From positions 1 through 64,000 of the IMG/VR virus record IMGVR_UViG_3300017605_000678: a stretch of DNA of 64,000 bases, one strand, 5' to 3'. This DNA is from a virus. How positions within the stretch are numbered: the first letter of the stretch is position 1; every line of letters begins with the position of its first letter. Shown here piece by piece: positions 30,435-62,866 of this stretch. Below the pieces are notes generated by a model. That model was given only the letters and a program-made list of their open reading frames with translations, had not been told where the DNA came from and searched no databases. Made by a program: the position numbers and the translations under genes.

Positions 30435-30531
30435 TTTTCGTTCGCCGGGCGGACTTACGGGGTCCGCCGCTCTTTCTGACCAGACTGTCGGCGATCCCCC
30501 GTAAGAAGTAAAGAGCTTTTTTGCTCTTTTT
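30435..30531 (-). promoter_or_regulatory. Promoter-hairpin-leader cassette, copy 1
   Basis: AAAGAGCAAAAAAGCTC-TTTACT-N17-GACAGT...GGCGGAC CCCGTAA GTCCGCC...GAACGAAAAATG. Confidence 0.85.
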
Positions 30532-31536
30532 TCACTTTTCTTTTGAGGCCTCGATCAGGCCATGAATCCAGGCTTGCCAGTCGCTCGCGCCCAGGGTTTC
30601 GGCCGTCAACGTCTCCGTGGGCGTCGCCTCGATCAGCCGGGCAATGTCAGCCGCCGGCAGCAGCTGCTTTTCCCGGATAAACTCCGTCATGGACCCGGGC
30701 TTGGGCGTGGCCCCGCGGAAGCCCTTTACGCGCTTGCGCCAGAGGCCCTCCGTAATCGGCTTGCCGACACCAGCCGGCCAGCCCTTTGACTCCGCGTAGG
30801 CCAGATTGCGGCGCGCCACGCGTGCTTCCAGGATGACAATGCGGCGCAGCTTGTCGTCCTCCAGGTCGAGCACTTCGGCCGGCTTCATCGCCGTGCAAAA
30901 GTAGCAGCTGGACTTGGGCGGTACCGGGAGGCCGGCCGCGTCGATCTCCGCTTCGCAGCGCTCGCGGTTCCAGCCCCAATCTTGCAGCGGGAACCAGAGG
31001 TCGGCCTTGGACGCCTCGTCGGCTGCCATGGCGAACGTGTCGCAGTTCCGCTTTGCCCGGCCGCGCTCGTGCGCGGAGTCCTCGAACCCGATCGCCTTGC
31101 GGATCTTCACGCCGCGGCGGAGGGCGGCCACGGCCGGCGCCCAGGTGTCGAGGTAGCGGCTGATCGGCGCGATCTTCCACTTGGCCGAGCACGTATGCGA
31201 GCCGTAGGCGATCGAGGGCAAGGTGACGTTCGTTAGGAGGTTCTCCTCCAGGGTCCGGTACGGCGGGAAATGCTTGAAGTTTTTAGGCTCATACCGAACG
31301 ACCGTGACGAGCGGCCAGCCGCGCTCGGCAAGCCATGCGTTGATCGTCGCCAAGTAGGCCATCGTCGCCGTGCGCTCGGCGCCCACGTCGGCGAAAATGA
31401 TCAGGTCCGGCCGGATCCCGCGGGCGTAGAGGCCCACGAGCACAGCGGTCGAATCGACGCCCAGCCCGTAGCAGACCACGAGCGGGGAAGGAGGCGGAGG
31501 CAAAACCTCCGCCCGGTATTCAAGAGACAATTCCAT
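30532..31536 (-). CDS. Second PAPS-reductase-like / PP-loop protein with Cys motif
   Basis: YGLGVDS, FADVGAE, CSAKWK, FPL.DWGW.R..C, PPKSSCYFC. Confidence 0.82.
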   Translation of the reverse strand: MELSLEYRAEVLPPPPSPLVVCYGLGVDSTAVLVGLYARGIRPDLIIFADVGAERTATMAYLATINAWLAERGWPLVTVVRYEPKNFKHFPPYRTLEENLLTNVTLPSIAYGSHTCSAKWKIAPISRYLDTWAPAVAALRRGVKIRKAIGFEDSAHERGRAKRNCDTFAMAADEASKADLWFPLQDWGWNRERCEAEIDAAGLPVPPKSSCYFCTAMKPAEVLDLEDDKLRRIVILEARVARRNLAYAESKGWPAGVGKPITEGLWRKRVKGFRGATPKPGSMTEFIREKQLLPAADIARLIEATPTETLTAETLGASDWQAWIHGLIEASKEK

Positions 31537-31538
31537 AA

Positions 31539-32207
31539 TCAGGCTTGGTAGAAGTAGCCCAGCTCGCGAAGCGAGGAGCGCTTGCCCTCGCCGACCACGA
31601 CGTGATCCAGCACTTCGATCTTGAGCAGTTGCCCGCCGCGGATCAAGTCCCGCGTCACTTTGATGTCAGCCTCGCTCGGCGTCGGATCGCCGCTGGGGTG
31701 ATTGTGCATGAGGATCACGGCCGCGGCATTGTCCACGATCGCCGCGCGGAAGACTTCGCGAGGATGAACTAGGATCGTGTCGAGCGTGCCCGTCGAGACG
31801 AGCCGGTGGGAGATCGCCCGGCGGCGCGTGTTCAAGTGGATCACGGCGAAGGATTCCACGTCCGCGTTGAACCACGGAGCGGTCGCGATCTGCTCGCGCC
31901 AGTAGGCCGCGGCCTTGTCGGGCGTGTCGATCGTGAGCGCGTCCGGCGTGCTCGGCGTTTCGCGCAGCGTGACCAGCTTGACCTCGACGGCGTAAGCCGG
32001 GCGCGCGGCCTTCGCCGGCTTGGCAACGGGCGCCTCGAGGGAAACAGGCGCCGGGCTCTCGCTCACCGTCGCCGCGCTCGAGCGACGGACCAGCGTGCGG
32101 ACCGCGTTGTGAGTGACGCCCGGGAAAAGCGCCAGCGTGCGCTCGATCAAACCCAGGGCATGGCCGGCGGCGATTTCCGCTCGGATGTAGGAAACGTGAG
32201 GCTTCAT
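31539..32207 (-). CDS. radC: RadC-like JAB/MPN-domain protein
   Basis: VHPREVFR.AI...A..VILMHNHPSGDPTPSEAD...LDHVVVG; start MKPHV set by the cassette leader. Confidence 0.93.
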   Translation of the reverse strand: MKPHVSYIRAEIAAGHALGLIERTLALFPGVTHNAVRTLVRRSSAATVSESPAPVSLEAPVAKPAKAARPAYAVEVKLVTLRETPSTPDALTIDTPDKAAAYWREQIATAPWFNADVESFAVIHLNTRRRAISHRLVSTGTLDTILVHPREVFRAAIVDNAAAVILMHNHPSGDPTPSEADIKVTRDLIRGGQLLKIEVLDHVVVGEGKRSSLRELGYFYQA

Positions 32208-32307
32208 TTTCGTTCGTTCGTTGGAGCGCCTTACGGGGGCGGCCCCTCTGTCTGGTCCGACCATCGGCGATCGCCGGCCGGAAGTAAAGAGTTTTTTTGC
32301 TCTTTTT
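32208..32307 (-). promoter_or_regulatory. Promoter-hairpin-leader cassette, copy 2
   Basis: TTTACT-N17-GATGGT; GGGGCCGCC CCCGTAA GGCGCTCC; AACGAACGAACGAAAATG. Confidence 0.88.
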
Positions 32308-32388
32308 GAAGATTTCTTTTTGGGCGCTAAGCAGGCACTAAAAAGGCGGCCACCAGCCCGAGGCCAGCGGCCGCCCTGGGCCAGCCCC

Positions 32389-32943
32389 CTATGGGGCGAA
32401 CTCGGCGCCGGGGGCGAATTTGCCGCCCGGGCGGAGCGCCTTAAGCAGCCATTCTCGGCCCGAGGCGCCGGAGTTATTGAACAGCCATTCCACTTGATCC
32501 AGGAGAGTGAGCGCCGCGCCCGTCTTGCGATCCACGAAACCCCGGGGGTGCGGGCTCGACTGGAGCCATGCACGGGCGTTCGAGTCGGCCAGCAGGGTCT
32601 TCAGCGCTTCCGTCACGGCCGCGGCCTTGGCGGCCCGTTTCTGCGCCTGGGCGGCCCGGTATTCAGGGCTGGTCCGGTAGGCCTTCAGGATCCCCTCGTC
32701 CCCGACCTTCTCGATACAGTTGCAGCCCACTTTGGAGCAACGGCCGTCCGCGCTCTTGATGTGGAATTCCCACTGGATCCCGTTGCCGCAGTAGTCGCAA
32801 GTCCCGCCGGGCTTGCGTACGCTGCCGTCTCCGGAGACCCAGACGTTCTCGCGGATCCCTACGTAGCGGAAGGGCGCCTTGCCCAGGCCCGCGGCCTCGA
32901 ACTTGTGCACGCCCACCAGTGTCGCGTCGTCGGTTTTGCTCAT
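32389..32943 (-). CDS. Zn-finger-containing phage protein
   Basis: HKFEAAGLGKAPF, CDYCG...VGCNCI. Confidence 0.7.
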   Translation of the reverse strand: MSKTDDATLVGVHKFEAAGLGKAPFRYVGIRENVWVSGDGSVRKPGGTCDYCGNGIQWEFHIKSADGRCSKVGCNCIEKVGDEGILKAYRTSPEYRAAQAQKRAAKAAAVTEALKTLLADSNARAWLQSSPHPRGFVDRKTGAALTLLDQVEWLFNNSGASGREWLLKALRPGGKFAPGAEFAP

Positions 32944-32950
32944 AAATGCC

Positions 32951-33166
32951 TTAGTTGTTCTCGATGAACAGGACGTTGCTCACGCTCTTGGACCGGTAGC
33001 TTGCGCCGGCCTTCGTGGCCCAACGGCGATCGAAAGTGACTCCGGACAGCTCGATCTGAGTCGGCCATTGCTCCGGGCTCTTGGGGAACTCCAGATTCGA
33101 AGCATGGGCCAGGAGGCTAAAATCTTCGCGCACGCTGACCTCTTCTTTGGGAATCGTGACTTTCAT
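32951..33166 (-). CDS. Hypothetical protein (first gene after cassette)
   Basis: ATG follows the cassette leader. Confidence 0.65.
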   Translation of the reverse strand: MKVTIPKEEVSVREDFSLLAHASNLEFPKSPEQWPTQIELSGVTFDRRWATKAGASYRSKSVSNVLFIENN

Positions 33167-33268
33167 TTTTTCTTTCGTTCGTGGGGCGCCTTACGGGGGC
33201 GGCCCTTTGTCTGAGAAGACCATCGCCTATTTGCGACCAGGAGTAAAGAGCTTTTTTGCTCTTTTTTC
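33167..33268 (-). promoter_or_regulatory. Promoter-hairpin-leader cassette, copy 3
   Basis: TTTACT-N17-GATGGT; GGGCCGCC CCCGTAA GGCGCCC; ACGAACGAAAGAAAAAATG. Confidence 0.88.
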
Positions 33269-33499
33269 AAATTTCTTTCTGGCCGACAAAACAGCCTCTA
33301 ACCCAGTAGTTTTGAAGCGACCCGGAGGCCTTCCACGGCCACCCGGGCGCCATGACTTAAAGCCATTCTTTAGCCTCTTACGCTCCATAAACTTCCCGTG
33401 ACAACTCAGGCAATGATTCGCCGTGACGCGCGGTTGTCCGCATTGCGCGCAGAGTCCGTTTTTAACTTTCTTCAACTGCCACCTTCGTTGTCTCGTCAT
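33227..33499 (-). CDS. Small basic Zn-finger / AT-hook-like protein
   Basis: CAQC...CLSC, GRGRPP; lower GC than flanks. Confidence 0.55.
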   Translation of the reverse strand: MTRQRRWQLKKVKNGLCAQCGQPRVTANHCLSCHGKFMERKRLKNGFKSWRPGGRGRPPGRFKTTGLEAVLSARKKFEKRAKKLFTPGRK

Positions 33500-33503
33500 A
33501 AGT

Positions 33504-34970
33504 TTAACCCCGCAGTTTGCGCATTTCTACTCGGCCAGGAGCCGAGGCAACGAAGTAGCGGAGCGCGTCCGCGGCGTCATCGCCGCCTTCGCCCTCCTCA
33601 TCCACGTCGACCTTTAGCACGTCCTCCGGATGCTTGGGGTCGTGCTGCATGAGCGGAAGCTGTTCGAGGAGCAGCTTGCAGCGCTCGTGAATAAAGAGCC
33701 GAGGCCGGATCCCGCGGTCCTGATCGCCCAGGCGTTCTAGGATCGCGCTCCAGCCGTTCACCCGCTCCGTGTTCGCCGGCGTGAGCGGAATCCCGGCCGC
33801 GTCGAACTGCTTCGCGACGCTCGTCCCGCTGGTCGGGTCGTCGGCGAAAACGTCCGTGCCGGCCACGAAGGACCCGAGGTTCGCGCGAGTGAGCAGCGCG
33901 CCCGCGGGCGTCTTGTGCCGGGCAATGGCAACGTGGATGTGGGCCGCTTGCTGGCTCGGCAGCAGCTCGGCCGCCGCGTGCTCGTCCAGGATCCATTCGT
34001 TGCCGTCGGAGTCTTCGCCGCCCAGGAGCGCGACCGTGAAATGCTTCCGGCCCCAATCGAGCGAGCCGCGCCAGCCCAGGACCCGCTTGTCTTGGTCGCC
34101 CGTCACGACGTGCACGTCTTGGCGGAACGTGGTGAAGTATTGGCCGGCCGCAATGTCCCAATCGCCAAGGCGCCACGCGCGGTGCTTCCAGCCGACCAGC
34201 CCGTCGAGGACCCGAACGTAGTCGCGCCGGATGAACCGATTGTCGTCGACCGTCGAGGGAATGAAGCGGGTCGTTGTCTCGCGGCCGGCCCGGAAGGGCA
34301 GAATGAACTTTGCGCGAAAGTGGGCGTGCCCAACTCCGCCGGGGTTGGTCGAGTAGTAGATCCGCGCGCGCCAGCCGTCCTTGCTCGTGCGGCAAGTCGT
34401 CGTGATGTCGCGGATCTTTCCGCTCGTGAGCGTGGTCGCCTCCTCGATCAGGATCAGGTCGTATTCCAGCCCGAGGTAAGTATCAATGTCCCGCTCGTGC
34501 TGGAAGTGGCCGGCAAAGATTTTCGAGCCGTTGGCGAAAGTCAGCTGGCCCCCGCCGCGGTTCGTGAAAGTATGCTCGAGCGAGGAGAACAGGCGCAGCC
34601 GAAGATCTTGGAAGTGCTCCAGGTTGGCCTTGCCGACTTTGCGCAGCAGCAAAACCTTCAACCCCGGGAAGCGCTGGCAGTCGTCGGCGCCGGCCTGGGC
34701 CAAGAGCACGTACGACTTGCCTCCGCCGCGCGCGCCGCCAAAGCCAATCTCGAAAGGGCCGTCTGGCCGATCGCACGCGCGAGCCGCCGCGGCAAACTTC
34801 AGCTGCTTCGGTTGGAGCGCCAGCCCGGCCCGAGTGAAGTTTTGGATTTGCTCGCGCGGACAGCCGGCCGCGTGGATCGCCCGGATGTATTCAGCCTCCA
34901 GCCGCGCTCGCAGGGCCGGATCAATTCCGGTCGGCCGCACCGGCGGCTGGAGCGTCGTCTCTTGGGGCAT
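33504..34970 (-). CDS. terL: Terminase large subunit
   Basis: Walker A GGARGGGKS, Walker B LIEEA, STNPGGVGH, nuclease SLDWG and DDAADALRY. Confidence 0.95.
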   Translation of the reverse strand: MPQETTLQPPVRPTGIDPALRARLEAEYIRAIHAAGCPREQIQNFTRAGLALQPKQLKFAAAARACDRPDGPFEIGFGGARGGGKSYVLLAQAGADDCQRFPGLKVLLLRKVGKANLEHFQDLRLRLFSSLEHTFTNRGGGQLTFANGSKIFAGHFQHERDIDTYLGLEYDLILIEEATTLTSGKIRDITTTCRTSKDGWRARIYYSTNPGGVGHAHFRAKFILPFRAGRETTTRFIPSTVDDNRFIRRDYVRVLDGLVGWKHRAWRLGDWDIAAGQYFTTFRQDVHVVTGDQDKRVLGWRGSLDWGRKHFTVALLGGEDSDGNEWILDEHAAAELLPSQQAAHIHVAIARHKTPAGALLTRANLGSFVAGTDVFADDPTSGTSVAKQFDAAGIPLTPANTERVNGWSAILERLGDQDRGIRPRLFIHERCKLLLEQLPLMQHDPKHPEDVLKVDVDEEGEGGDDAADALRYFVASAPGRVEMRKLRG

Positions 34971-35526
34971 AGGATTTTAAAAGCGCCTCTTCGAAGGAAT
35001 GCACGAGCACGGGCCCGCCCTGGGGACCGCTGATCTCCGTGCGGACCGGAGTGTCGAGGCCCAGCAGCTCGCAGCGCCGCTTGATACACTGAAGAATAAT
35101 CTGCAAGTAAATGGCCGCGCCGCCCGTGTCACGGACCACCATCGCCCGCTTCAGCTCGGCGGCCGCCGCGCGCTTGGCTTTGCGCGGAAGCGCGCCCGTG
35201 CGTTGCTCCGTCGTCGTGCGAACGCGCTCCTTCAGAAAGGCATCGTGCGCGAGGCGCTCGACGTTATTGATCGCCATGACCTCGCGGGCCCGTTGCGTGA
35301 CCAAGTGATCCTTCTGCTCCTCCTGCAGCCGGCCGATCAACTCCTGGACGTCGAGGTACACTTGCGAGCGTGAGATCGAATAGTCGCGCGTCGCGCTCAC
35401 TGCCTCGGCGATCTGCTGGAGCGTCTTGCGCTCGCAGTAGAGGCGCGCGATCAAGGTCAGGTCGACCTCGCGTTGCACGACGTTTCGCTTGTGCGCAAAT
35501 TTGGACGGACCACCCAGCTTGGCCAT
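34921..35526 (-). CDS. Terminase small subunit
   Basis: HTH-like N-terminus, RRCELLGLD.P.RTEISGPQGGPV; directly upstream of terL. Confidence 0.8.
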   Translation of the reverse strand: MAKLGGPSKFAHKRNVVQREVDLTLIARLYCERKTLQQIAEAVSATRDYSISRSQVYLDVQELIGRLQEEQKDHLVTQRAREVMAINNVERLAHDAFLKERVRTTTEQRTGALPRKAKRAAAAELKRAMVVRDTGGAAIYLQIILQCIKRRCELLGLDTPVRTEISGPQGGPVLVHSFEEALLKSYAPRDDAPAAGAADRN

Positions 35527-35530
35527 AATT

Positions 35531-43421: not shown

Positions 43422-43718
43422 TTACAGTCCCGGGTCCGCGTCGCTCGTCACGCTGAATCCGTCGAACACGCCGCCGCAGTCGGCCTCGTTGAATGCCACC
43501 GGCGCCGGCCGCTGGTCCCAAGTGACCTCCGCGCTCAGCGGCAGGCCGTCCGCCGACTGCCGGCGGTTGGTGCCCGTGATGTAGGCCCAGCCGGGCGAGG
43601 AGTTGATCACGCGGCCGCCGATCTTGGCCACGACAGCGCGGAGGGTTTCGCCGACCACGGTCAGCTCTTCGCGGAAAAAGCCGGCCGACGCCTGGAAGGT
43701 TACGTTGAAGGTTTTCAT
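43422..43718 (-). CDS. Hypothetical protein (first gene after cassette)
   Basis: Start MKTFNVT; C-terminal EADCGGVFDGFSVTSDADPGL. Confidence 0.65.
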   Translation of the reverse strand: MKTFNVTFQASAGFFREELTVVGETLRAVVAKIGGRVINSSPGWAYITGTNRRQSADGLPLSAEVTWDQRPAPVAFNEADCGGVFDGFSVTSDADPGL

Positions 43719-43820
43719 TTTCGTTCGTTCGTGGGGCGCCTTACGGGGGCGGCCCCTCTTTCTGGTTGTGACCATCGTCGATTTCCGCCGCCAAGTAAAG
43801 AGTTTTTTTACTCTTTTTTT
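43719..43820 (-). promoter_or_regulatory. Promoter-hairpin-leader cassette, copy 4
   Basis: TTTACT-N17-GATGGT; GGGGCCGCC CCCGTAA GGCGCCCC; ACGAACGAACGAAAATG. Confidence 0.88.
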
Positions 43821-44313
43821 AGGCCCCAGAATCTGGCCGTTTATGGCCGTTTCTGAACTTCAGCAGCCTCTCGGCCGCCATTTTCAAAGGTCCCCCAGAC
43901 AGCGCCTTGGCCGCGGCCTTCTCCAGCCAGCCCTTGCGCTTTGGGTCCCGTGCGCCGGCGGCGCGGTCGATCGCCTCGACCCAGCGGATCGCCACGGCCG
44001 CCACTTGCAGCAGCTCGGCCCGGCGCTTCTGCGGGTCTGGCTCCGTGATGGCCTCGAAATGCTCCTCGCTCAAGATCATTGCCCAAGTCTGCTCGCCCGC
44101 CTGCATGAGCCGGTTCACTTCGGCCTTTAGTGCGGCCATCTCCTCGAGCAGGTCCAGGCGCACGCCGTCGGCGTTTTCGTTTCCATGGAGCGAACTCGCG
44201 CGAGCAGCCTCCGCCGCCACGTCATGGAACACGCGGGTCCGAATCGACAGGAAACGGTCCGCGTTCCCGAGCCGGCCAGGACGGCTCCGATCTGGTAGCT
44301 CGCCATCGCTCAT
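43819..44313 (-). CDS. MazG-like NTP pyrophosphohydrolase
   Basis: WAMILSEEHFEA...RAELLQVAAVAIRWVEAID. Confidence 0.7.
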   Translation of the reverse strand: MSDGELPDRSRPGRLGNADRFLSIRTRVFHDVAAEAARASSLHGNENADGVRLDLLEEMAALKAEVNRLMQAGEQTWAMILSEEHFEAITEPDPQKRRAELLQVAAVAIRWVEAIDRAAGARDPKRKGWLEKAAAKALSGGPLKMAAERLLKFRNGHKRPDSGA

Positions 44314-46048: not shown

Positions 46049-46321
46049 TTAGTTATTGTCCCACGCATCCTCACGCGCCAGCACGATCTCGCGCATGACC
46101 GCGGCCTCGATCTCCGCCTCGCCCTCGTCGGACTTCATCCAGGCCAGCGCGGCCTCTCGGGAGCAGCCCTCGACGGTGCGCAGCTCCGGGTCGATCTCCA
46201 GCTCGTCGGCCGTGCCCGGGCTCCAGCGCGTTTGCCGTTCGCCGGGGAAAAAGCGGACCTCGGTCTCCAGGTCAATGATCACGTCTTCGCCGCCGATCGT
46301 GGGTTCCAGTTGGATTTTCAT
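46049..46321 (-). CDS. Acidic hypothetical protein (first gene after cassette)
   Basis: ATG follows the cassette leader. Confidence 0.65.
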   Translation of the reverse strand: MKIQLEPTIGGEDVIIDLETEVRFFPGERQTRWSPGTADELEIDPELRTVEGCSREAALAWMKSDEGEAEIEAAVMREIVLAREDAWDNN

Positions 46322-46421
46322 TTTCGTTCGTTCCGGGCGCCCTTACGGGGGGCGGCCCTCTTTCTGAGAAGACAATCGGCGATCGGCCTCCGGAAGTAAA
46401 GAGCTTTTTTACTCTTTTTTT
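46322..46421 (-). promoter_or_regulatory. Promoter-hairpin-leader cassette, copy 5
   Basis: TTTACT-N17-GATTGT; GGGCCGCCC CCCGTAA GGGCGCCC; GAACGAACGAAAATG. Confidence 0.88.
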
Positions 46422-46723
46422 GAGGCGGTTTTCCTGGGCTTTTTGCTGCTTTTTGGCGACCTCAGCGCAACGTCTGCCTCTGGCACTCCGGACATTTTCC
46501 GGTAAATCTCCAGGAGCATGAGGCCGACGCCCAGGCGCGGCTCGGCCCGCTGGCAGTAGTCCGGGAAAAGCCATTGGCGGATGTTCCCAGGGTACTGGCG
46601 CCGGCCCGTCATCCTGGACAGTTCCGAGCATACGTAAGCCATGGATCCGCGGTTGGCCCGCACGTACTCAGCCAGCGGCGCAAGGGCCGCGTCGCTCCGT
46701 TCTTGTGTTGGGTCTTTAGTCAT
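46409..46723 (-). CDS. Putative HTH (Cro/XRE-like) regulator
   Basis: SMAYVCSELSRMTG....NIRQWL......EPRLGVGL. Confidence 0.5.
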   Translation of the reverse strand: MTKDPTQERSDAALAPLAEYVRANRGSMAYVCSELSRMTGRRQYPGNIRQWLFPDYCQRAEPRLGVGLMLLEIYRKMSGVPEADVALRSPKSSKKPRKTASKKE

Positions 46724-47789: not shown

Positions 47790-48197
47790 TCATCGGGCAC
47801 CTCCGATCCAGCGATCGACGCTCGGCGCGCTCGGCAGCGCAACGGCCCAGTGAGTCTCGCGCCGGCACTTGCCGTCCACGATCCCGGCCTCGGCGCGCAG
47901 CGCGTATTCCAGCTGATCAAGGTCGTTTGAGTTGAAGTCACGGCACGCGGCGAAAGAGCGGACCAGCTCGCCGGCCTTCATGCCCACGGACATCGTGCCC
48001 GAACCGCTCTTGACGTAGAAGCAAACGAAGTCGGCCCCGTGCACGTCCGTTCCGCGGGCGAAGATCTCGGTCACTTCAGAGAGCCCGAAGCAGCTCGGGA
48101 CAACGTCGCCGACTTTCAGGTTCGCGACGTCGGAGGCCTCGGGCAGATACAGCGTGACGCTCTCGTACCGTTTGTTCTGGTAGGTTTTGGTTTTCAC
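47790..48197 (-). CDS. Hypothetical protein (first gene after cassette, GTG start)
   Basis: GTG follows GAACGAACGAAA. Confidence 0.65.
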   Translation of the reverse strand: MKTKTYQNKRYESVTLYLPEASDVANLKVGDVVPSCFGLSEVTEIFARGTDVHGADFVCFYVKSGSGTMSVGMKAGELVRSFAACRDFNSNDLDQLEYALRAEAGIVDGKCRRETHWAVALPSAPSVDRWIGGAR

Positions 48198-48297
48198 TTT
48201 CGTTCGTTCCGGGCGCCTTACGGGGGCGGCCCTCTTTCTGGTGAAGACCATCGGCGATCTGGCGCCGGAAGTAAAGAGTTTTTTTACTCTTTTTTTG
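48198..48297 (-). promoter_or_regulatory. Promoter-hairpin-leader cassette, copy 6
   Basis: TTTACT-N17-GATGGT; GGGCCGCC CCCGTAA GGCGCCC; GAACGAACGAAAGTG. Confidence 0.88.
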
Positions 48298-48685
48298 AGG
48301 CCGTTTTATTGGGGTTTTCAGCGATTTTTGGAACGTCTCCCAAATGAACGGCCACGAGCAAACCCGCGACCAGCTCGGCCCGCACGAATGTCCCGGCCAA
48401 TCGGCCGCAATAAACAAACTCTCCGGAGGCAGACAGCGACAGGGAAAAAAGACGGTGGTCGCCAAAGTACCACTCGAAAGAGATGTCGCCGTCCGGATCA
48501 GCTGCCAGCGACGGGCTCGGAAATAGTGGCGAGAGGCCTTGCAGGAATGCGCGCGCCGCGGCCACCGTCTCCGCCGAGATCGCGACCGCACTATGGGCAT
48601 CCCAGCCCGGGAGCGAGCACTCGTCCGCGAGCCGCTCCAGCTCGAGGAACGCCTCGGATCGATCTGCAAAGTTTGGTTCGATCAT
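48284..48685 (-). CDS. Hypothetical protein
   Basis: GWDAHSA.AIS...DGDISFEW motif. Confidence 0.55.
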   Translation of the reverse strand: MIEPNFADRSEAFLELERLADECSLPGWDAHSAVAISAETVAAARAFLQGLSPLFPSPSLAADPDGDISFEWYFGDHRLFSLSLSASGEFVYCGRLAGTFVRAELVAGLLVAVHLGDVPKIAENPNKTASKKE

Positions 48686-51649: not shown

Positions 51650-52105
51650 TCAAAACGGCACATCGTCCTCATCGTCCGGAGGCGGCGCCTTGCTGCTCGC
51701 GGCCACGCCCGCGGGCGCCGGTTGTCCTCTGCGCGGCGCAGGCTCCGACCCGCCGCCGTCTTTGCCTTTGCCCTTGCCATCGCCGCAGAAGTGGAACTTT
51801 TCCACGATGATCTTGATCTTGTATCGGGGCTTGCCTGTTTGCTTGTCCTCCCAGCTTTCTTGCTTCAGCCGGCCCTCGACGCAAATCGCTCCGCCCTTGC
51901 CGAAGTATTGGCTGATCGTCTCGGCCGGCTTTCCGAAGGCCACGCAATCGAAGTAATTGACCTCTTCTTGCAGATCTCCGGCCTCGTCGTACCAGTTGCG
52001 ATTGTTGGCCACTCCGAAGTCAGTCACGGCCGTTCCCTTGGGCGTGTAGCGCAGCTCCGGGTCGCGCGTGAGATTCCCGCCGACTGAAACGTGGTTCATG
52101 TTCAT
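51650..52105 (-). CDS. ssb: Single-stranded DNA-binding protein
   Basis: GNLTRDPELRYTPKG, VEGRL...WEDK, DDVPF tail. Confidence 0.96.
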   Translation of the reverse strand: MNMNHVSVGGNLTRDPELRYTPKGTAVTDFGVANNRNWYDEAGDLQEEVNYFDCVAFGKPAETISQYFGKGGAICVEGRLKQESWEDKQTGKPRYKIKIIVEKFHFCGDGKGKGKDGGGSEPAPRRGQPAPAGVAASSKAPPPDDEDDVPF

Positions 52106-52698
52106 CGGTCAACCTCCCCAGTGTAGCGGCCGCGCGCGCTGTCGGGCTGAGGCCGGGCGGCCAGCAGCTTGGTAAAGGAAATCGAAATGCTCGTGCGGTT
52201 GTTCGTGCCGATCGCCGTGAACAACGTCTTGATCGAGGCCTCCGCCTGGGTCCGGACCGCGTCGTCGGCGATCCCCAGCTCGGCCATCAACCCGTCGTCG
52301 TCCACGACCTCGACCACCCAGGCCCCGGGCTCCAGCTCGCAGACAGCTTGCACGCAACGCACGAGCAGAGCGGAGATCTCCTCCGGCGACATCGGGTTGT
52401 TCTTGCGCCCGCGGAGCGGCGCCTCGGCCACGCCGCGCTCTGGCTCCAGGATTGGCGCCAGCGAGACCAGATCGCTTGCCCGGGCACTGGCCAGGGCCAC
52501 GAGCCCCTCGAGCGCGCGAAAGTTGCGGCCGCCCTTGCCGATCAATACGCGCGTGTCGGCCGCGTGGGCTCGCAGTGAAACGACGTGTGAGGCCGGCAGC
52601 TTGCGCAATTCGGTCTCTACCAAATCTGTCCGCTCGACCAGCGCCCGCGCAAGATCGCCGATCAGCAGTTCAATATCTTTGGGAGTTAATTTGTTCAT
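52102..52698 (-). CDS. KH-domain RNA-binding protein (KhpA-like)
   Basis: ADTRVLIGKGGRNFRAL GxxG loop; second degenerate KH-like half. Confidence 0.78.
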   Translation of the reverse strand: MNKLTPKDIELLIGDLARALVERTDLVETELRKLPASHVVSLRAHAADTRVLIGKGGRNFRALEGLVALASARASDLVSLAPILEPERGVAEAPLRGRKNNPMSPEEISALLVRCVQAVCELEPGAWVVEVVDDDGLMAELGIADDAVRTQAEASIKTLFTAIGTNNRTSISISFTKLLAARPQPDSARGRYTGEVDR

Positions 52699-53196: not shown

Positions 53197-53708
53197 GATG
53201 GGTTTGAGTTCTCGGACCCGGCCGGGAGCAAGGATGGCTGGCCCGCGGGCGCACACGCGACCGCGGGTAATAATAGGTCAGCACTTCCAGACTTTGCCCG
53301 ACCGGGTTCCGAAAATTTTCTTGCCAGGTACCGGAAGACGTAGTCCGGAACGGAGTCGGCCCAGGGCAGCTCCGGATTGATCGTGAAGCCGTACGGCTGA
53401 AATTTCTGGCCCTCGAATTTGGAAGCAAGGACCGACAAGGGAACGCCACTTTGAAAGGCCACGCTGGCCAGGATGGCGATCCCATCCATGAGACCGCTAA
53501 TCGTCGAACCGGCCTTGCTCATTTCGATAAAGATCTCGCCGGGCGTTCCGTCTTCGAACAAGCCGACGCGCAGATATCCCTCGTGATCGCCAATGCGGAA
53601 CTTGTGCACGAGCGCGGCCCGGGTTGTTGGCAGGCGTCGGCGGCGGGCTTGGTATTTCTCGATCATCGTTCGTTCGCTGGCAGGATTAAAAGCAGGAGCG
53701 GGCATCAT
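53193..53708 (-). CDS. Stand-alone class II ribonucleotide reductase C-terminal (TSCPD) domain
   Basis: RRRLP..R....HKF.IG..EGY..VGLFEDG.PGEIFI.MSK.GST...DSVPDYVFRYL; alternative start at 53666. Confidence 0.85.
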   Translation of the reverse strand: MMPAPAFNPASERTMIEKYQARRRRLPTTRAALVHKFRIGDHEGYLRVGLFEDGTPGEIFIEMSKAGSTISGLMDGIAILASVAFQSGVPLSVLASKFEGQKFQPYGFTINPELPWADSVPDYVFRYLARKFSEPGRAKSGSADLLLPAVACAPAGQPSLLPAGSENSNPS

Positions 53709-54562
53709 GGTAAAGCGTTTTTTTGCTTTTTTTCCAGTTCCTCCTGTAGGCCGCGCAGCCCTGGAATGTCCTTGGCTGCCGCCGCCGCTCTTGCCTTTCC
53801 TGCAAGCGTGCGCCGGATGCCCTCCTGTAATCCGATCTCGTAAGCGCACAGCAAGAGCCGCGCTTCGTTCGTTTCGCCACTCAGCCAGAGATTGACCAGC
53901 CGAGTTTGACTTTCCTCCACTGAATCCGGCGGCAGTCCGTCGGATCCAGTTAAGTCCCGGAACATGTCAAAGTTCAGGTCGCGCAATTTGGTACTCATCG
54001 TTCACAGTTCCCATCGCATTTGTGGATCCGCGCCCACTCCTCGGGCGAGTAGCCAAACTGAGGGTCTCGCGCTTGCAGAGTGCGGATTATTTCCGCAGCA
54101 ATGTACTCGCCCAGCTGCCGAGACCAGTGCATCCGATCGTTGGCCATGCGAGCGGCGCGATCCTGCGCCTCAACTGCAAAGGGCACCTCGCGCTCGCGCG
54201 GCAGCGGCGCAAAAGTTTTCGCCCATTGCTCCGGGCTGATCGTGACCTCGTGCACAGCGGTTCGAACTGACTCCGACCAATCGGCGCCGACGCCAGTGCG
54301 GCTCGGCGGCCGCAACTCAACCCGAAGTATTCCGAAGGCTCCTCGGCTCATAATTTTTCCCTTTCAGCGATCCAAAGGTCCATCTCGACCGTGCACGGCA
54401 CCCAGCCATTGGCCAGGGGCGCCTCGCGCGAAACGTGGTGAAGAGCCGAGCGCGGGATCCAGACGCGGCGCGCCGTGACGTCCTCCTGGGGCATTGTCGA
54501 AAACTGGATCGCCTTTTCAGTCTGCCGAATCTGCCAGAGGCGCTCGCGGGTCGTTTCGTTTC

Positions 54563-55006
54563 TCATGCTTCCCCCATCCTCGCCGACTGGCACGCCGGGC
54601 AGCAGCGCTCCGAACTGGGCCGCCCGCAGCTCTCGCAAAGTTTGCTCGCTTCGACCGGCTCCGAGTGCGTGCGGATCCATTCAAGGAAACGGCACGCTGG
54701 GCAGCCTCCGCCGAGCGCGATTCTCTCCGGCTCCATGAGCGGGCCGTGATTGTGCGGAACGCGAGCCAGGATGTTGCACAGCTCTGCCACTTTGGTGTCG
54801 TCGGAATTGCCATTGATAAAGATCTGCTCCGGGCCAGCCGGCGCCCGTTGCTTGTGCACTTCTTCCCGGTCGACCACCACGTCGCGCGGCGCTTCGACAT
54901 CCAGGACGGCGCAGCCGCTGCGCGGGTCGAACCGGACAAATTCAACAAACGACTTGCCGTCAATCACGAAGCGCTGCCCAGGCTTACGCTTAAAAACGAG
55001 TCCCAT
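54563..55006 (-). CDS. CsrA/RsmA-like RNA-binding protein with C-terminal Cys-rich extension
   Basis: LVFKRKPGQRFVIDG...LDVEAPRDVVVDREEV; then CPAC, CESC, CPAC. Confidence 0.8.
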   Translation of the reverse strand: MGLVFKRKPGQRFVIDGKSFVEFVRFDPRSGCAVLDVEAPRDVVVDREEVHKQRAPAGPEQIFINGNSDDTKVAELCNILARVPHNHGPLMEPERIALGGGCPACRFLEWIRTHSEPVEASKLCESCGRPSSERCCPACQSARMGEA

Positions 55007-57562: not shown

Positions 57563-57825
57563 TGGCACCCCTTCAGCGCTTTTTGAGCGTCCTTGAAAAA
57601 CTGCATCGGGAATGGCCGGCTGACCAGCGCTCCGCCTTCCAAATTTTGGAGATTTCCAGCAAAGTGTTTGGCGAACGGAATCAACGCGTCCTCCAGCTGT
57701 GCGATGCGCTTAGCCTGCATGCGCAACAGCTCCACCGCCTCCTCGAAAGCCTCGCAGCGCTCGGTCTCTGTGCGAACAGCGGATCGCATTTCGTCTGCCA
57801 TTGCAGCGATCTGTTCAATAGTCAC
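57559..57825 (-). CDS. Hypothetical protein, paralog B
   Basis: RIAQLEDALIPFAKHF...FKDAQKALK. Confidence 0.6.
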   Translation of the reverse strand: MTIEQIAAMADEMRSAVRTETERCEAFEEAVELLRMQAKRIAQLEDALIPFAKHFAGNLQNLEGGALVSRPFPMQFFKDAQKALKGCQ

Positions 57826-58136: not shown

Positions 58137-59827
58137 ACCTTGTTCCCTTTCATTTCCACGACGAACCGGCTCGGCCACAGTTCCGAGCCCATCTTGTCCC
58201 ACGCGCTAAGCTGGCGCCGTTTCACTGTCGAGACGATCAGGCTCCGCCGGGCGCGCGTGACCGCCACGAAGCACAGCCGGCGCTCCTCCTCCGGATCCGT
58301 CTCTTTCAGCGTCGAGGGCAGAAGGCCGTCCTCGGCGCCGGCCAGGATCACGACGTCCCACTCTCGGCCCTTGGCGCGATGAATTGTCCCGCACCAGACG
58401 GACCCGGGAGTCTCCTCCGGGGGCGCGCTGGCCTCCGGCCGCGCCATGGCCAGCGAAAGGTCCTCCATGCTCGCCCCAGGCCCCAGAGCGACGACCAGGG
58501 CCCGCACAGCCCGGGAAGCGTCGGTAGCGCCTCCCATTGCGCGCAGGACGGCCTCAGGAGCGGCCGACGGCGGCAGACCGCTCTCTACCTGCAGGAATGC
58601 CTTGTTGATGCTGGTAAAGGCCTCGCCGGCCTTCAGCGCCAGATCGTTCGCCACAGCCTGTCCGCGAGTCAGCTCGAGGAACCAGCGCGCCGAGGAGTCG
58701 CGCTCCGGGTCGGCCAGGAACGCCACGAGGGCGCGGGCAATTTGCCAGCCGTCCGGAACGTGCCAGCGATCCGTTTCCGTGAGGCGTCCGGCCGCGCGAA
58801 GCGCCTCGCCGAGTTTGTCGGCCACGAAGTTGGTCCGCGCCAGGACGGCCACGGAGAGCGAGCACAAGACCGCGTCGTTTACTGCTGCGATCACTTTCGT
58901 TGCCTCCTGGGCTTCATTGTCGCTCTGTAAGAACGTGACGGCGCCGATCGTTTTCAGGGCCGGCTCGACCGCCTTTGGAATCCGGCGCCGATTGTGAGTG
59001 ATCAGGTTCGAGGCCGCCGTGCACACGTTGATCGGACAGCGATAGCTTTTGGACAGGACAAAGCCAGCGCGGTTCGCGTTGCGCATGGGCCCAGGCCACA
59101 GCGAGAGCAGCGCCGACGGGTTTCCGCCGGCAAAAGCCATGATGCTCTGATCCAGGTCGCCGACGTAAAACTTCGATCGCGCCCGGGCAGTCGCGCACAG
59201 CCGGTGCGTGTCGCTTCCGCAATCTTGGTACTCGTCCACGAGGATCGCGCCGGCCACGGGCCGGCCCAGCTGCGCCAGCGTGTCGACCACGAGGATCGCC
59301 GCCTTAAGGATCATTGCATACGACAGGAACCCGTCCCGCAGCATGGACCGTTGAGCGTCGGCCACGACCGCGCGTTCCATGTCGTAGCCTCCTGGGGACG
59401 TGGGCAGCTCGGCCTCTGCCGCCTGCCGGGAGAGGTCGCGCACGGATCCGCGGTAGCCCATCGTCATGGCCGAACGGCGAAGTATCGTCTCCGCCTGTGC
59501 CTCGTCGATCACGACCCAGTGGCGCGCGTCGCCCATGCCGATCTCGGCGCCGAACCGGCGAACCAGCTTCAGCGCCCATGAATGGATCGTGCCGCAGTGG
59601 CCGAGCATCACGCCTGGGCGGAGCCGGCGAGAGATCTCGCCGGCGGCCGCGTTCGTGTAAGTGACGGCCACGATGTCCTCTGGAAGCATTCCGCCATCGA
59701 TCAGCCAGTGAATCCTCGCCACGAGCACGCGGGTCTTGCCCGAGCCGGGCCCGGCCAGGACCACGGTCGATTCCGCATGCGAGGCCACGGCGGCAGCCTG
59801 CTCTGGGTCTAGTGATTGATTTTCCAT
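58133..59827 (-). CDS. UvrD/Rep-family SF1 helicase
   Basis: AGPGSGKT, VDEYQD, VGDLDQSI, SYRC, TIHRAKGREW, EERRLCFVAVTRAR. Confidence 0.94.
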   Translation of the reverse strand: MENQSLDPEQAAAVASHAESTVVLAGPGSGKTRVLVARIHWLIDGGMLPEDIVAVTYTNAAAGEISRRLRPGVMLGHCGTIHSWALKLVRRFGAEIGMGDARHWVVIDEAQAETILRRSAMTMGYRGSVRDLSRQAAEAELPTSPGGYDMERAVVADAQRSMLRDGFLSYAMILKAAILVVDTLAQLGRPVAGAILVDEYQDCGSDTHRLCATARARSKFYVGDLDQSIMAFAGGNPSALLSLWPGPMRNANRAGFVLSKSYRCPINVCTAASNLITHNRRRIPKAVEPALKTIGAVTFLQSDNEAQEATKVIAAVNDAVLCSLSVAVLARTNFVADKLGEALRAAGRLTETDRWHVPDGWQIARALVAFLADPERDSSARWFLELTRGQAVANDLALKAGEAFTSINKAFLQVESGLPPSAAPEAVLRAMGGATDASRAVRALVVALGPGASMEDLSLAMARPEASAPPEETPGSVWCGTIHRAKGREWDVVILAGAEDGLLPSTLKETDPEEERRLCFVAVTRARRSLIVSTVKRRQLSAWDKMGSELWPSRFVVEMKGNKV

Positions 59828-59916
59828 ATTTCCTTTGACACAAGCCAGACGAGGATCGACGCCGTCGCCAAGGCGAAAGAGAGGAACCAAGTCTGAATTT
59901 TGATCCGGGTTTTCAT
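59809..59916 (-). CDS. 35-aa single-TM peptide (below track cutoff)
   Basis: MKTRIKIQTWFLSFALATASILVWLVSKEIWKINH*, preceded by a (GAAC)n leader. Confidence 0.55.
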   Translation of the reverse strand: MKTRIKIQTWFLSFALATASILVWLVSKEIWKINH

Positions 59917-59943
59917 CGTTCGTTCGTTCGTTTTTGTTCGTTC

Positions 59944-61893
59944 TTAGGCCACGTCGATCATGGCCGTGCTCGGCGTCTTTTTTCGCAATTCGCGGGAGGC
60001 TCCGAGCAGTTGCGACCACCATTTAGACGAGCGGACGTCACAGCCAATAAATTGATCGATGTGGCCCTTGTCGACCAGCTCAATCATGCGTTCCACAACA
60101 CGCACGCGGACTAGCTCGTCCATGATCCCCAGCTCGTCGATCAGCACGAGCCGGAACGGAGCGCCCAGCGTGAGCGCCACTGCAAGCCCCGCGTACGTGA
60201 TCGCTTTCTCCGTGCCCGAAAACGTCTCGTGACTCACCCAGGTCCCGGTCTCGTCTTCGTAGCCGAACTCGCCGTTGCGATACTCCAACGGCCGGTCCAG
60301 GATCCCGTCGGTAAACCGGTTCGCGGCCTCCATGACGGTACCCACGGCCCGGGCAATCGCCTCCTGCTGCGCAGCCTGGATCTCTTCGACGACCGCCCCG
60401 TAAACGGCCGCCAGCTCGCGAGTCTTCTCCAGCAGCTCCGCCGCGCGGTTGCGCGCGTTGACCTGGGCTTGCTCGGCGATCCAGCGCGTATGCGTGGCGT
60501 TCAGCTCCTCGACGCGCTCGCGCGCCTTGGCCATCGTGGCCAGGAGCAAATCGATCGGAGCAGGCTCGCCCAGCTCAGTCAGCCGGGCTTGCAGCTGCGC
60601 CCGGTCCTTCTGGACATCGACACGGGCCAGTAGGTCGGCCAAATCCTCGTGAGCCTGCGCGATCTGCGCGCCCATGTTTCCGACCTTTTGAACGCGTGCG
60701 AACTCGGCTTGCTCGGCCTTGCTCGCAGCCTCCAGTTCCTTGGCCAGCTCCTTCTCGCGTTTCACAAGCCCATGGCGCACGAGCAAGAGAGAATCCAGCT
60801 CCTCCGTCAAATGGCCCTCGATTTTCTTCCGCCAGCCTGGAGCCGAGGCCATGCAATGCGGGCAACACTTTTCGGCCTTCAGCCCTTCAATGTCTTCGCG
60901 GATCTTGGTCGCCTTGTCGAGGTTGTCGCGCGTGTCGGCCCGGGCGCCCTCCAGCGCAGAGGAGGCCTTGCGCGCCGCCGCCACGATCTTTGCGTCGATC
61001 TTGCTGGATCCCAGCTTCGTCTGCTGGGCTTCCAGGTCGGACAGCCGGCGCTTCGCTTCGTCGAGCGCGCCCGCCGGCGGGGGCAAGTTTGGCATCCGCT
61101 CCAGCTGCGCCAGTAATGACTTGCGCGCCTCGATCACGTTCTGGGCCCGGTCGTGTTCGAGGATCACGCTGGAGAGCCCCTCTCTGGCCATGGCCAGCTC
61201 TGCCGCGCAGTTGCGCGCCGGGAAGGCTCCGAACTGTCCGGTCAGAGCGGCCGTCGTGGCCGACCCTTCGCTGGCCCGAGCCGCCGCCAGCGCCTCCTTA
61301 CGCGCCGTGGCGAACGCTTTATGCAGCGCCTCGGCAAACTCCTGGGGCGTTGGCTCTTCGTCGTCCTCCAGATAACTCTTCAAAATGTTCTCGACGTCGG
61401 TCCGGATGTGTTCCGGCCGGCCCACCGCAATGCCACGCACGCGCGCCGCCAGCCCTTGCGGCGTGAGTTTGGTCAGCTCCGGGCTCACGCGCCCGAAAAT
61501 GTAGTTGAGCCGCTGGGCGGCCGTGAGGCTGAAAAACTCTCGGATGTCCAGCGAGAGCGCCGGCAGCATGGTAGGCAGGTCGGTCCCGACCCGAACGGAG
61601 CCGCCTTCGCGCGTCCAGGAACGATCGATGCGTTGCCCGCTCGGCTCTCCGATCATGGACAGGGTCGCGCGCTCCAGCGTCACGCCCAGGACGGAGCCCG
61701 AGCACAGCCGGAACGTGTCGCCAGCTCGCTTGCCCAGGGCCGGGTGGTAGCCCAGCAGGCCCAAGCGGATCGCGTCGAGCACTCCGGTCTTGCCGGAGAA
61801 GGAGGGCCCACAAACGATCGTGACGGGCGCAAGGTCGTAGTCGAAGCAGCGGCCTTTCAAGTTGCGCGCTGCGATTTTGGTGATGTGGTTCAT
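59944..61893 (-). CDS. Rad50/SbcC-like SMC ATPase
   Basis: Walker A GPSFSGKT, coiled coil with CPHC zinc hook, signature FSGTE, Walker B LVLIDE. Confidence 0.88.
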   Translation of the reverse strand: MNHITKIAARNLKGRCFDYDLAPVTIVCGPSFSGKTGVLDAIRLGLLGYHPALGKRAGDTFRLCSGSVLGVTLERATLSMIGEPSGQRIDRSWTREGGSVRVGTDLPTMLPALSLDIREFFSLTAAQRLNYIFGRVSPELTKLTPQGLAARVRGIAVGRPEHIRTDVENILKSYLEDDEEPTPQEFAEALHKAFATARKEALAAARASEGSATTAALTGQFGAFPARNCAAELAMAREGLSSVILEHDRAQNVIEARKSLLAQLERMPNLPPPAGALDEAKRRLSDLEAQQTKLGSSKIDAKIVAAARKASSALEGARADTRDNLDKATKIREDIEGLKAEKCCPHCMASAPGWRKKIEGHLTEELDSLLLVRHGLVKREKELAKELEAASKAEQAEFARVQKVGNMGAQIAQAHEDLADLLARVDVQKDRAQLQARLTELGEPAPIDLLLATMAKARERVEELNATHTRWIAEQAQVNARNRAAELLEKTRELAAVYGAVVEEIQAAQQEAIARAVGTVMEAANRFTDGILDRPLEYRNGEFGYEDETGTWVSHETFSGTEKAITYAGLAVALTLGAPFRLVLIDELGIMDELVRVRVVERMIELVDKGHIDQFIGCDVRSSKWWSQLLGASRELRKKTPSTAMIDVA

Positions 61894-61916
61894 TCGTTCG
61901 TTCAGAGTTGAGGGTT

Positions 61917-62720
61917 TTACTTTTTCGCAGTCTCGGGCGCCGGTGCTGGATCGACGTTCGCGCCGTCGTTGTCGCTCGGCTCGGGCTTTGGATCCGCCGG
62001 TGCCGAAGTGCGCAAGCGTAATTGCAGCACAGAGGTCGGCATGAACCGGTGCATACCGTCCTTTTCAAGCTGGATCAAGATCGTTGTCGCCAGCGCCTGA
62101 AATTGTGCATCCGGCAGCTCGTAACCGAACTGGAGCCGCACAGCGTCTTTGGCCTGGAGCGCAGCCGCAAAGGCCACAAGGAAAGCGTTGCCGACTTTCA
62201 TCGCGTGCTTTTTGGCGCGCAGGATCTCGTCCGGGTTGGGTTCCTCGCCGGCAGCCAGGGCGCCTTGCCGCGCCGCGTCTTGGCCGGGCCGGGCCGGAGG
62301 ATTCTGTTGCTGGCGCTGGGGCTGTTGCTGCTGAGGAGGCGCCGCGTTGCGGGCCGGAGGAGGAGCGGTGTTGCGCGCCGGAGGCTTGGCGGCCGCCGGC
62401 TTGCGCCCACGGGCCGGAGGATTGGCCGTGTTACGCTTGGCCGGCTCGGGCTCCGGTTCCGCCGCGCTCTCGCCACAATAGCCAAGCGTTGCATCCTCCT
62501 TCGTGCCCTCGGCAGACAGCGTGAAAGTTTGCCCCTCTTGGCCGCGGAAAAAGTCGGCGCACCGATCGTTCTCTGCTGAATAAGTCCGCTCTTGCCCGTC
62601 GATCTCCAGGATAATGTACGGCGGACGGTTTGGGTATTTGGATTCCCTTACGTCGGACTTGACCGTCACTTCAACTGGGCCCATGTGACGAAGTTCCGAG
62701 TGATACAGTGTTTTTCCCAT
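61917..62720 (-). CDS. Putative ssDNA-binding/annealing protein
   Basis: Beta-rich N-terminal domain, Pro/Gln linker, helical C-terminus; position in recombination module. Confidence 0.5.
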   Translation of the reverse strand: MGKTLYHSELRHMGPVEVTVKSDVRESKYPNRPPYIILEIDGQERTYSAENDRCADFFRGQEGQTFTLSAEGTKEDATLGYCGESAAEPEPEPAKRNTANPPARGRKPAAAKPPARNTAPPPARNAAPPQQQQPQRQQQNPPARPGQDAARQGALAAGEEPNPDEILRAKKHAMKVGNAFLVAFAAALQAKDAVRLQFGYELPDAQFQALATTILIQLEKDGMHRFMPTSVLQLRLRTSAPADPKPEPSDNDGANVDPAPAPETAKK

Positions 62721-62824
62721 AACGGTTCTCTTTCGTTCGCTCGGGTCCGTCGCCCCGCTTCTACGTTCGTCGGAAGCTGCCGGGCCGACCCGTTTTGTGT
62801 GCCCGCTTCACGGGCCACAGCCAG

Positions 62825-62866
62825 ACCATCGGCAATCGTCCTCCAGAAGTAAAGAGTTTTTTTGCT
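62825..62866 (-). promoter_or_regulatory. Seventh promoter copy (core only, different leader)
   Basis: GCAAAAAAACTC-TTTACT-N17-GATGGT. Confidence 0.82.

Follow-up and report, generated by a model that had tools for sequence, protein, structure and literature searches.

A dispersed putative promoter and leader unit ahead of non-structural gene blocks in an uncultured GC-rich siphovirus

Background

Dispersed cassettes combining a promoter with a stem-loop have been documented mainly in T4-type coliphages, and motifs associated with translation starts mainly in mycobacteriophages. The UP-element promoters, such as rrnB P1 of Escherichia coli and the strong early promoters of lytic coliphages, carry an A-tract at about -55 to -38 that adjoins the -35 motif, and a spacer of 17 nt. 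The PeSL elements of T4-type phages are ORFan-associated units of ~100 bp which comprise an upstream stop codon, an AT-rich tract, a sigma-70-like promoter, a stem-loop made of a G-run and a C-run and possibly located downstream of the -10, a ribosome binding site and an ATG (PMC2839356). Shuffling of PeSL cassettes by recombination has been shown in the T4-type phages (PMC2839356, PMC4122927). In Cluster K mycobacteriophages some of the non-structural genes carry start-associated sequences (SAS) 3-7 nt ahead of the start codon, about half of these sites having an inverted repeat just upstream (extended SAS, ESAS); SAS are thought to act in translation (PMC3203893). In this work we have analyzed a unit of ~105 bp, present in eight copies, in the virus record IMGVR_UViG_3300017605_000678 of IMG/VR (75,536 bp), the first 64 kb of which are referred to below as the window. 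The unit is likely to represent a class of promoters with a common 5′ leader.

The record has a terminal overlap of 141 bp and is rated complete. Its GC content is 63% and it encodes a tape measure protein, a minor tail protein, the major head protein, the portal and the large terminase (TerL). The virus is of the siphovirus type, with a tape measure gene present and no myovirus sheath gene seen. The repeat resembles PeSL in being a dispersed intergenic unit of ~100 bp that joins an AT-rich tract, a promoter, a stem-loop, a ribosome binding site and ATG, and in its association with ORFans, three of its copies being located in an insert between the TerL and portal genes; as in one PeSL subclass, the stem-loop is placed downstream of the -10. 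Unlike PeSL, with which it has no sequence homology, it belongs to a siphovirus of a GC-rich host that is probably poor in Shine-Dalgarno (SD) sequences. It has an invariant 7-nt loop, no U-tract, a non-canonical -10 and a non-SD ribosome site, and recombination between its copies has not been observed here. In common with SAS/ESAS, its start-proximal motif GAACGAA is phage-specific, kept in one orientation, over-represented before a subset of starts and preceded by an inverted repeat. However, SAS has an AGGAG core whereas GAACGAA lacks complementarity to the anti-SD, the ESAS repeats are 17 bp long, SAS has not been described within a promoter unit, and there is no homology between the two. 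The A-tract next to the -35 and the 17-nt spacer are shared with UP-element promoters, but the -10 is GAYDGT here. The repeat is real and clearly delimited; as a phage regulatory element it is of a familiar kind and does not amount to a new principle. It is a clean example of such elements in a GC-rich, uncultured siphovirus of which hardly any relatives have been sequenced.

Results and discussion

Anatomy and copies of the repeated unit

The pattern TTTACT-N17-GAYDGT was found seven times in the window, always on the minus strand, and not once in 100 dinucleotide shuffles. The seven sites share a single orientation and are all that the 75,536-bp genome contains, which confirms the seven-copy repeat recognized in the initial annotation, where the copies had been listed by their plus-strand low ends just beyond the start codons (Table 1). 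Among the non-coding dispersed repeats of the window, this family dominates by a wide margin. Six of the sites (c1-c6) are parts of full units of ~105 nt that align over ~106 columns with a mean identity of 83% and 56 invariant columns. Each full unit has, in this order, an A-tract, a -35 into which the dyad AAAGAG-N8-CTCTTT of the A-tract extends, the 17-nt spacer, the -10, the conserved CAGAAAGAG, a GC hairpin, GAACGAA(CGAAA) and the start codon, after which an AAA or AAG codon is found. The stretches identical in all full copies include AAAAAGAG, AAAAAA, CTCTTTACT, CCCCGTAAG and GAACGAA, and the spacer is partly conserved (GATCGCC). The dyad and the CCCGTAA loop of the hairpin, both reported earlier as constant, proved invariant in the alignment of the six copies. 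The start codon described behind GAACGAA(C) is also present in all six, with the difference that c6 uses GTG.

A covariance model built from the six full copies (R1) returned these copies with 108-120 bits, scored the seventh site (c7) at 36 bits and an additional degenerate copy (c8) at 20 bits, and gave no further match in the genome. The check by alignment and covariance model that had been proposed thus recovered the six full copies and added an eighth member to the family. The homology of c7 is limited to about -46 to +4, A-tract included, and is followed by a different leader of ~98 nt. Its earlier description as a core-only copy holds for the -35/-10 core; c7 also has a hairpin of its own, since the first 24 nt from its predicted +1 form an unrelated and likewise bulged structure. 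In c8 the A-tract and TTTACC are followed 17-18 nt later by the T/A-rich TTTTAAT and, with no hairpin in between, by GCGAACGAACG and the ATG. The TTTTAAT agrees with TATAAT at 5/6 positions, the A at position 2 being absent, which makes the activity of c8 doubtful.

Table 1 Coordinates of the repeated units and of related features on the minus strand
Feature	Coordinates	Strand	-35	-10	Start codon	R1 score	Genes headed and remarks
c1, full copy	30432..30535	-	30512-30507	GACAGT 30489-30484	ATG 30434	108.5 bits	72-aa ORFan, 81-aa open reading frame (ORF), PAPS-reductase-like gene, ParB-like gene
c2, full copy	32205..32311	-	from 32288	GATGGT	ATG 32207	118.9 bits	RadC-like JAB (222 aa), 334-aa PAPS-reductase-like gene (Pfam, PHROG); one G-U stem pair
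c3, full copy	33164..33270	-	from 33247		ATG 33166	114.4 bits	71-aa ORFan, 184-aa ORF; directly downstream of TerL
c4, full copy	43716..43822	-	from 43799	GATGGT	ATG 43718	120 bits	98-aa ORFan, small ORFs, DUF5131, two DNA methyltransferases, then 201-aa ORF, TerL
c5, full copy	46319..46423	-	46400-46395	GATTGT 46377-46372	ATG 46321	118.5 bits	90-aa ORFan, 135-aa ORF, SF2 helicase
c6, full copy	48195..48298	-	from 48275	GATGGT	GTG 48197	112.5 bits	five small ORFs, none with a family match
c7, core-only copy	62721..62872	-	62853-62848	GATGGT 62830-62825	ATG 62720	36 bits, E 4e-5	replication/recombination block: 267-aa ORF, SbcC-like 649 aa, UvrD-like helicase
c8, degenerate copy, found by R1	53664..53737	-	TTTACC 53714-53709	TTTTAAT	ATG 53666	20.3 bits, E 0.04	TSCPD-domain gene, KH-like gene
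GAACGAA without a cassette, example	61897..61903	-			ATG 61893		3 nt before the ATG
Sole strong intrinsic terminator on the coding strand	26879..26910	-					14-bp stem, 10 G-C pairs, T6 tail

A putative promoter class

The -35 TTTACT agrees with the consensus at 4/6 positions and the -10 GAYDGT with TATAAT at 3/6, the two critical bases, A at position 2 and T at position 6, being kept in 7/7 sites. The spacer is exactly 17 nt, and a conserved CA is found at the predicted start, ~7 nt past the -10. A search with working controls detected no Sigma70_r2 or Sigma70_r4_2 domain in the phage, which suggests that the sites are probably read by the host RNA polymerase; no T7-type RNA polymerase was matched either, but the controls of that search also remained without a match. 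We consider it likely that the repeat constitutes a class of promoters for the host polymerase with a shared 5′ leader. Host RNA polymerase with the primary sigma factor would bind the UP-like A-tract (about -55 to -36), TTTACT and the weak -10, and would initiate transcription at the conserved CA. In six units the resulting leader of ~45 nt would comprise ~7 purine-rich nt, a bulged GC hairpin of 7-8 bp and the A-rich, unstructured GAACGAACGAAA that extends to the start codon. The GAACGAACGAAA tract would serve as an SD-independent ribosome-loading region, and the hairpin would act in RNA, contributing to the stability of the 5′ end and/or providing a binding site for a factor. For c5 this places the predicted +1 near 46365, the hairpin at 46358-46335 and the translation initiation region at 46334-46322.

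Several observations weigh against such a promoter class. Besides its low agreement with TATAAT the -10 has no TG extension, and a generic sigma-70 scan (>=4/6 per hexamer) misses the sites. A plain sigma-70 promoter does not need the conserved GATCGCC of the spacer, whose presence suggests that the copies share a common descent, that gene conversion has occurred or that an additional binding site exists. The ~7 unpaired nt ahead of the hairpin, counted from the predicted +1, are long for classical protection of the 5′ end, and the folding energy of the hairpin is unexceptional in comparison with shuffles. All the copies come from one genome, so recent copying, and not constraint, may account for part of their conservation, and the host is uncultured.

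The non-canonical -10 and the conservation across GCCGAYDGTC could also indicate that an alternative host sigma factor, of the extracytoplasmic function (ECF) type, or an unrecognised phage polymerase or sigma factor reads the sites in place of the primary sigma. ECF promoters follow the scheme AAC-N16/17-CGT, which is resembled by the motif when read as TTTAC-N17-CGAT, and the uninformative search for a T7-type polymerase leaves room for a phage enzyme. Nevertheless, the A-tract UP element and the 17-nt spacer are hallmarks of promoters for the primary sigma, the phage has no sigma domains, and dependence of the main non-structural genes on a stress sigma factor would be unusual; we regard this alternative as decidedly unlikely.

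Two minor features of the promoter region should be mentioned. A GATC is present at the same position of the spacer in c1, c2, c5 and c6 (e.g. 46381-46384); c7 has GATT there. Two DNA methyltransferases are encoded by the phage (35531-36901 and 38701-40377), and methylation-sensitive promoter activity is conceivable. The -10 GATGGT of c2, c4 and c6 contains an ATG (32264, 43775 and 48251, respectively) in frame with the true start. Gene callers begin three genes at this ATG, adding 18-19 spurious codons; the public RadC protein P0121 (241 aa) starts there and not at 32207 (222 aa), and is thus probably mis-annotated by 19 codons.

The inverted repeat at the -35

The dyad was initially annotated as operator-like. 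If the -10 occupies positions -12 to -7, the dyad extends from -52 to -33 with its centre near -42.5, where both UP elements and class II activator sites are located. The promoters might be regulator-dependent if the dyad and a third AAAGAG, found at about +3 (+37/38 from the start of the -35) in four copies and with a 5/6 match in c2, bound either a phage or host activator (class II, of the Mu Mor/C or CRP type) or a repressor, a factor that would make up for the weak -10 or gate it. Invariance of the dyad in 6/6 full copies, a centre typical of class II activator sites, as estimated from the positions of the -10 and the spacer, the third AAAGAG, the weak -10 and the partly conserved spacer are all consistent with a regulator. 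However, c7 and c8 both retain the A-tract, whereas the dyad has lost its left arm in the former and its register in the latter, which favours a UP-like role over a regulator site. An A-tract that abuts a -35 beginning with TTT makes the AAA/TTT complementarity automatic, so that GAG/CTC is all that the dyad adds, and in evolutionary terms the six copies amount to one observation. Moreover, a distance of 14 bp between half-sites is unusual for dimers of helix-turn-helix proteins, and no regulator was identified, the small ORFs having no Pfam or PHROG match. Regulation through the dyad appears doubtful to us on balance. The operator-like repeat thus stands as an invariant feature of six copies, for which the UP-element reading is at least as good.

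Distribution of the units along the genome

Nearly all genes were assigned to the minus strand by codon-based gene calling, with essentially none on the plus strand. Along the direction of transcription the order is c7, c8, c6, c5, c4 (with TerL downstream), c3, c2, c1, the terminator and the portal gene. All eight copies fall within 30.4-62.9 kb, in the non-structural part of ~36 kb, and none is found in the ~39 kb of structural genes past the terminator. Every copy is oriented like the genes and located no more than 100 nt upstream of a start codon. The confinement, the common orientation and the proximity to start codons fit one co-regulated class of transcription, and the eight units are probably such a class, early or middle. 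Together they would provide for the co-regulated transcription of the non-structural half, in accordance with the regulon proposed in the initial annotation. That regulon had been called early, but the class is not strictly so, with TerL and the 201-aa ORF in the position of the small terminase (TerS; no family match) being located downstream of c4 and three copies between TerL and the portal gene.

The terminator (Table 1) is located 44 nt before the portal GTG (26835) and divides the promoter-bearing half from the structural genes. Between the two no obvious promoter was noticed. The expression of the late genes may need read-through or a promoter that overlaps the terminator.

The leader hairpin

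The six leaders fold into a stem of 7-8 bp with the invariant 7-nt loop CCCGUAA (-11.7 to -15.1 kcal/mol). The energies (z from -0.02 to -2.3 against shuffles) are ordinary for GC-rich sequence. Pairing is kept in 88% of the cells of the alignment, compared with 74% in column shuffles and at most 55% with the partner slid, and changes on both sides have occurred in 3/7 stem pairs. The earlier statement that the stem varies while its pairing is maintained is borne out as far as pairing goes, but all compensatory changes derive from c1, which has a wholly different stem, and c5, which has one added C-G pair, whereas c2 (apart from its single G-U pair), c3, c4 and c6 have nearly the same stem with a bulged C. 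With the variation confined to two copies, the covariation is genuine but thin. The hairpin of c7, placed at the same site, shows that a 5′-proximal hairpin recurs even without homology.

In every fold the region of the start codon is unpaired. The stem is followed on the coding strand by GGAACGAACG or a similar sequence and not by a U-tract such as the T6 tail of the one clear terminator of the genome, which makes canonical termination at the hairpin unlikely; with the start codon unmasked as well, the hairpin appears to be neither a translational clamp nor a terminator. Other roles were considered and rejected. Translational occlusion is incompatible with the unpaired start region. A coding function of the leader is precluded by indels that shift the frame between copies and by an in-frame TAA in the loop of c3. 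A split-SD model, in which the hairpin would bring AAGAGG near the AUG, fails because 13 nt follow the stem and GAGG is lost in c1 and c3. Hairpin promoters of the N4 type were dismissed on account of the siphovirus type of the phage, the loop of 7 nt instead of 3 and the lack of a gene for a giant virion RNA polymerase.

As a guess, the loop might be a binding site for a protein, with the CsrA-domain and KH-like proteins of the phage as candidate partners. The CsrA-domain ORF (54563-55006, minus strand) scored 26.7 bits, or 27.6 bits with its frame neighbours, at a cut-off of 27, and the KH (KhpA/B-like) match (52102-52698, minus strand) scored 29.2 bits, under the cut-off of 32.1. GGA, the motif bound by CsrA, occurs in only 2/6 leaders. 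None of the Rfam families was matched, and no tRNA or transfer-messenger RNA was found. In c1 only, the CTTACGGGG within the spacer (30496-30504, minus strand) is exactly complementary to the CCCCGTAAG of the leader (30454-30462), ~40 nt downstream; the two could pair in an alternative long-range fold of read-through transcripts.

With its position close to the promoter, its conserved loop and its tolerant stem, the RNA hairpin is reminiscent of boxB of the lambda nut sites and of the put sites of HK022. By analogy, the hairpin might load a factor on the polymerase, or modify it, such that early transcripts pass the terminator ahead of the portal gene and the late genes are expressed. Besides the variable stem and invariant loop, such a role would suit the restriction of CCCGTAA on the coding strand to the six leaders, and the position of the sole strong terminator, which leaves no room for an obvious promoter before the portal gene and has no copy of the unit downstream. 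Unlike boxB, however, the loop has 7 nt and is not a GNRA-like pentaloop, and there is no boxA-like partner, boxA being undefined for this host. No antiterminator of the Q-type families was found and no N is recognisable, proteins of the N type being unrecognisable by sequence. The hairpin is missing from c7 and c8, a late promoter could overlap the terminator, and nothing links the hairpin to the terminator. An antitermination site of this kind seems unlikely.

On the plus strand the hairpin is followed by the T-rich run CTCTTTCT, so that it could work as DNA or on that strand, as a terminator or insulator against antisense transcription. A generic scan listed 3/6 of the sites as plus-strand terminator-like. 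However, such matches are overall no commoner than in shuffles, the T-run is interrupted, and there are essentially no plus-strand genes. In addition, the G-U pair of c2 exists on the minus (sense) strand only. This reading is highly improbable, and a hairpin acting in the RNA of the predicted leader is preferred.

Taken further, the leader could be a regulatory RNA module of phages of SD-poor hosts, possibly Verrucomicrobiota. CCCGUAA would then recruit a phage RNA-binding protein or modify the polymerase and couple the early units to translation control or terminator read-through, and the ~105-bp unit would be a PeSL-like site of ORFan capture outside the T4 group. We offer this as speculation that is more apt to fail than to hold, and rate its chances as slim.

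The translation-start motif GAACGAA

For GAACGAA, 25 occurrences were counted on the minus strand as against 5 on the plus strand and ~3.8 expected. The heptamer is located 1-8 nt before about 12 starts, including those of the cassette-free genes at 61893, 59916, 28341 and 17907. The initial annotation had treated it as part of the cassette; to judge from this distribution, it is a general SD-free translation-start motif of the genome. The shorter ACGAA precedes 15/108 minus-strand genes, compared with a background of 2%, and is never found together with an SD core: GGAG, GAGG and AGGA are absent from every upstream region of the ACGAA type. An SD core is present ahead of 22% of the genes versus 14% in the background, and the regions from -15 to -1 are enriched in A (30% vs 20% in the genome).

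In SD-less bacteria, initiation has been shown to be promoted by A residues at -3 and -6 and by a start region that is rich in A and unstructured (PMC6847099). Verrucomicrobiales are one of the three groups without SD sequences (PMC10798248; see also PMC10783764). For the portal (~43% identity) and RadC (61-63%) genes, all homologues with a name come from metagenome-assembled genomes of Verrucomicrobia. These data give a weak hint, and not an assignment, of an SD-poor host such as Verrucomicrobiales. If validated, the units would supply candidate promoters, 5′ untranslated regions and ribosome-loading sequences for use in a group of bacteria that is difficult to work with.

Mosaic copies and exchange of gene cassettes

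As had been noted before, the copies head unrelated blocks of genes, and we found no paralogs among the cassette genes, which speaks against spread of the unit by gene duplication. A transposon or a miniature inverted-repeat transposable element was also rejected, there being no terminal repeats and no target duplications. The phage has no tyrosine integrase in a domain search with working controls. The first gene behind each of the six full copies has no Pfam or PHROG match, yet c2 is listed with the RadC-like JAB gene. Behind c1, c2 and c3 are three accessory units, inserted between the TerL and portal genes, which contain RadC, a ParB-like gene, two PAPS-reductase-like genes and ORFans. The genes that precede the copies have their stop codons within the A-tract or at its margin (ORF ends at 30532, 43819, 46409 and 48284). 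A C-to-T difference that sets c4-c6 apart creates a TAA which serves as the stop in c5 and c6. By their upstream parts the copies form the subfamilies c1-c3 and c5-c6, and c4 is chimeric, with an A-tract of the c6 type and a leader 97% identical to that of c3. The informative sites conflict, columns 13 and 20 showing all four combinations. The mosaic copies are compatible with exchange between copies, as far as a few sites can indicate.

These features raise the question of whether the units double as portable patches of homology, through which ORFan cassettes are inserted, deleted and shuffled by recombination. The architecture matches that of PeSL (PMC2839356), the genes behind the copies are not paralogous and begin with ORFans, three accessory units have accumulated between TerL and portal, and the copies are mosaic. 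Against this, no relative carrying the element was found, so that no indel bounded by copies could be observed, and the mosaic signal consists of a handful of sites which recurrent mutation could explain. Such exchange is a tentative possibility that we would take seriously without expecting it to be true. If validated, the phage would provide a second independent system for examining whether shared regulatory cassettes drive the shuffling of ORFans. Accessory genes with their own promoters between conserved genes are also known as morons from lambdoid phages and other siphoviruses, to which the three units between TerL and portal are similar. Unlike them, classical morons carry unrelated promoters and a terminator, whereas the units described here share promoter and leader and are not separated by terminators.

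The search for relatives covered several sources. Megablast of 30-50 kb against phage records gave no match. A scan of IMG/VR for the -35/-10 pattern returned 87 single matches, about the number expected by chance, none of which scores with R1, and searches there for the invariant A-tract/-35 module and for the loop with the translation initiation region yielded chance matches only. In metagenome contigs and GTDB genomes the A-tract/-35 module gave AT-rich chance matches only. In IMG/VR neither TerL nor the 649-aa early protein has a close relative; the latter has one homologue, with 39% identity. The element was found by R1 in none of 80 portal relatives (35-51% identity) with 10-kb flanks; the nearest homologues of the portal have identities of 58% and 54%.

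The closest scanned portal relative (L096, 51% identity) contains a 19-bp perfect palindrome, GCGGGATCAATTGATCCCG, in three copies (74-92, 3165-3183 and 3368-3386). Two of these are located within the TerL-portal interval, and thus represent a different lineage-specific repeat in the equivalent region. As L096 also has genes between TerL and portal, but with a different repeat, it too counts against the units acting as patches of homology.

Immediately upstream of c7 two tandem direct repeats of ~39 bp, each ending in CCCCAGGTTTATTCCCAATTG, occupy 62873-62950 (minus strand), a feature of this copy of the unit only; they are a candidate operator or iteron for the promoter of the replication module. 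The ORF located upstream of these repeats (62953-63318) contains CxxC...HH (HNH-like) motifs.

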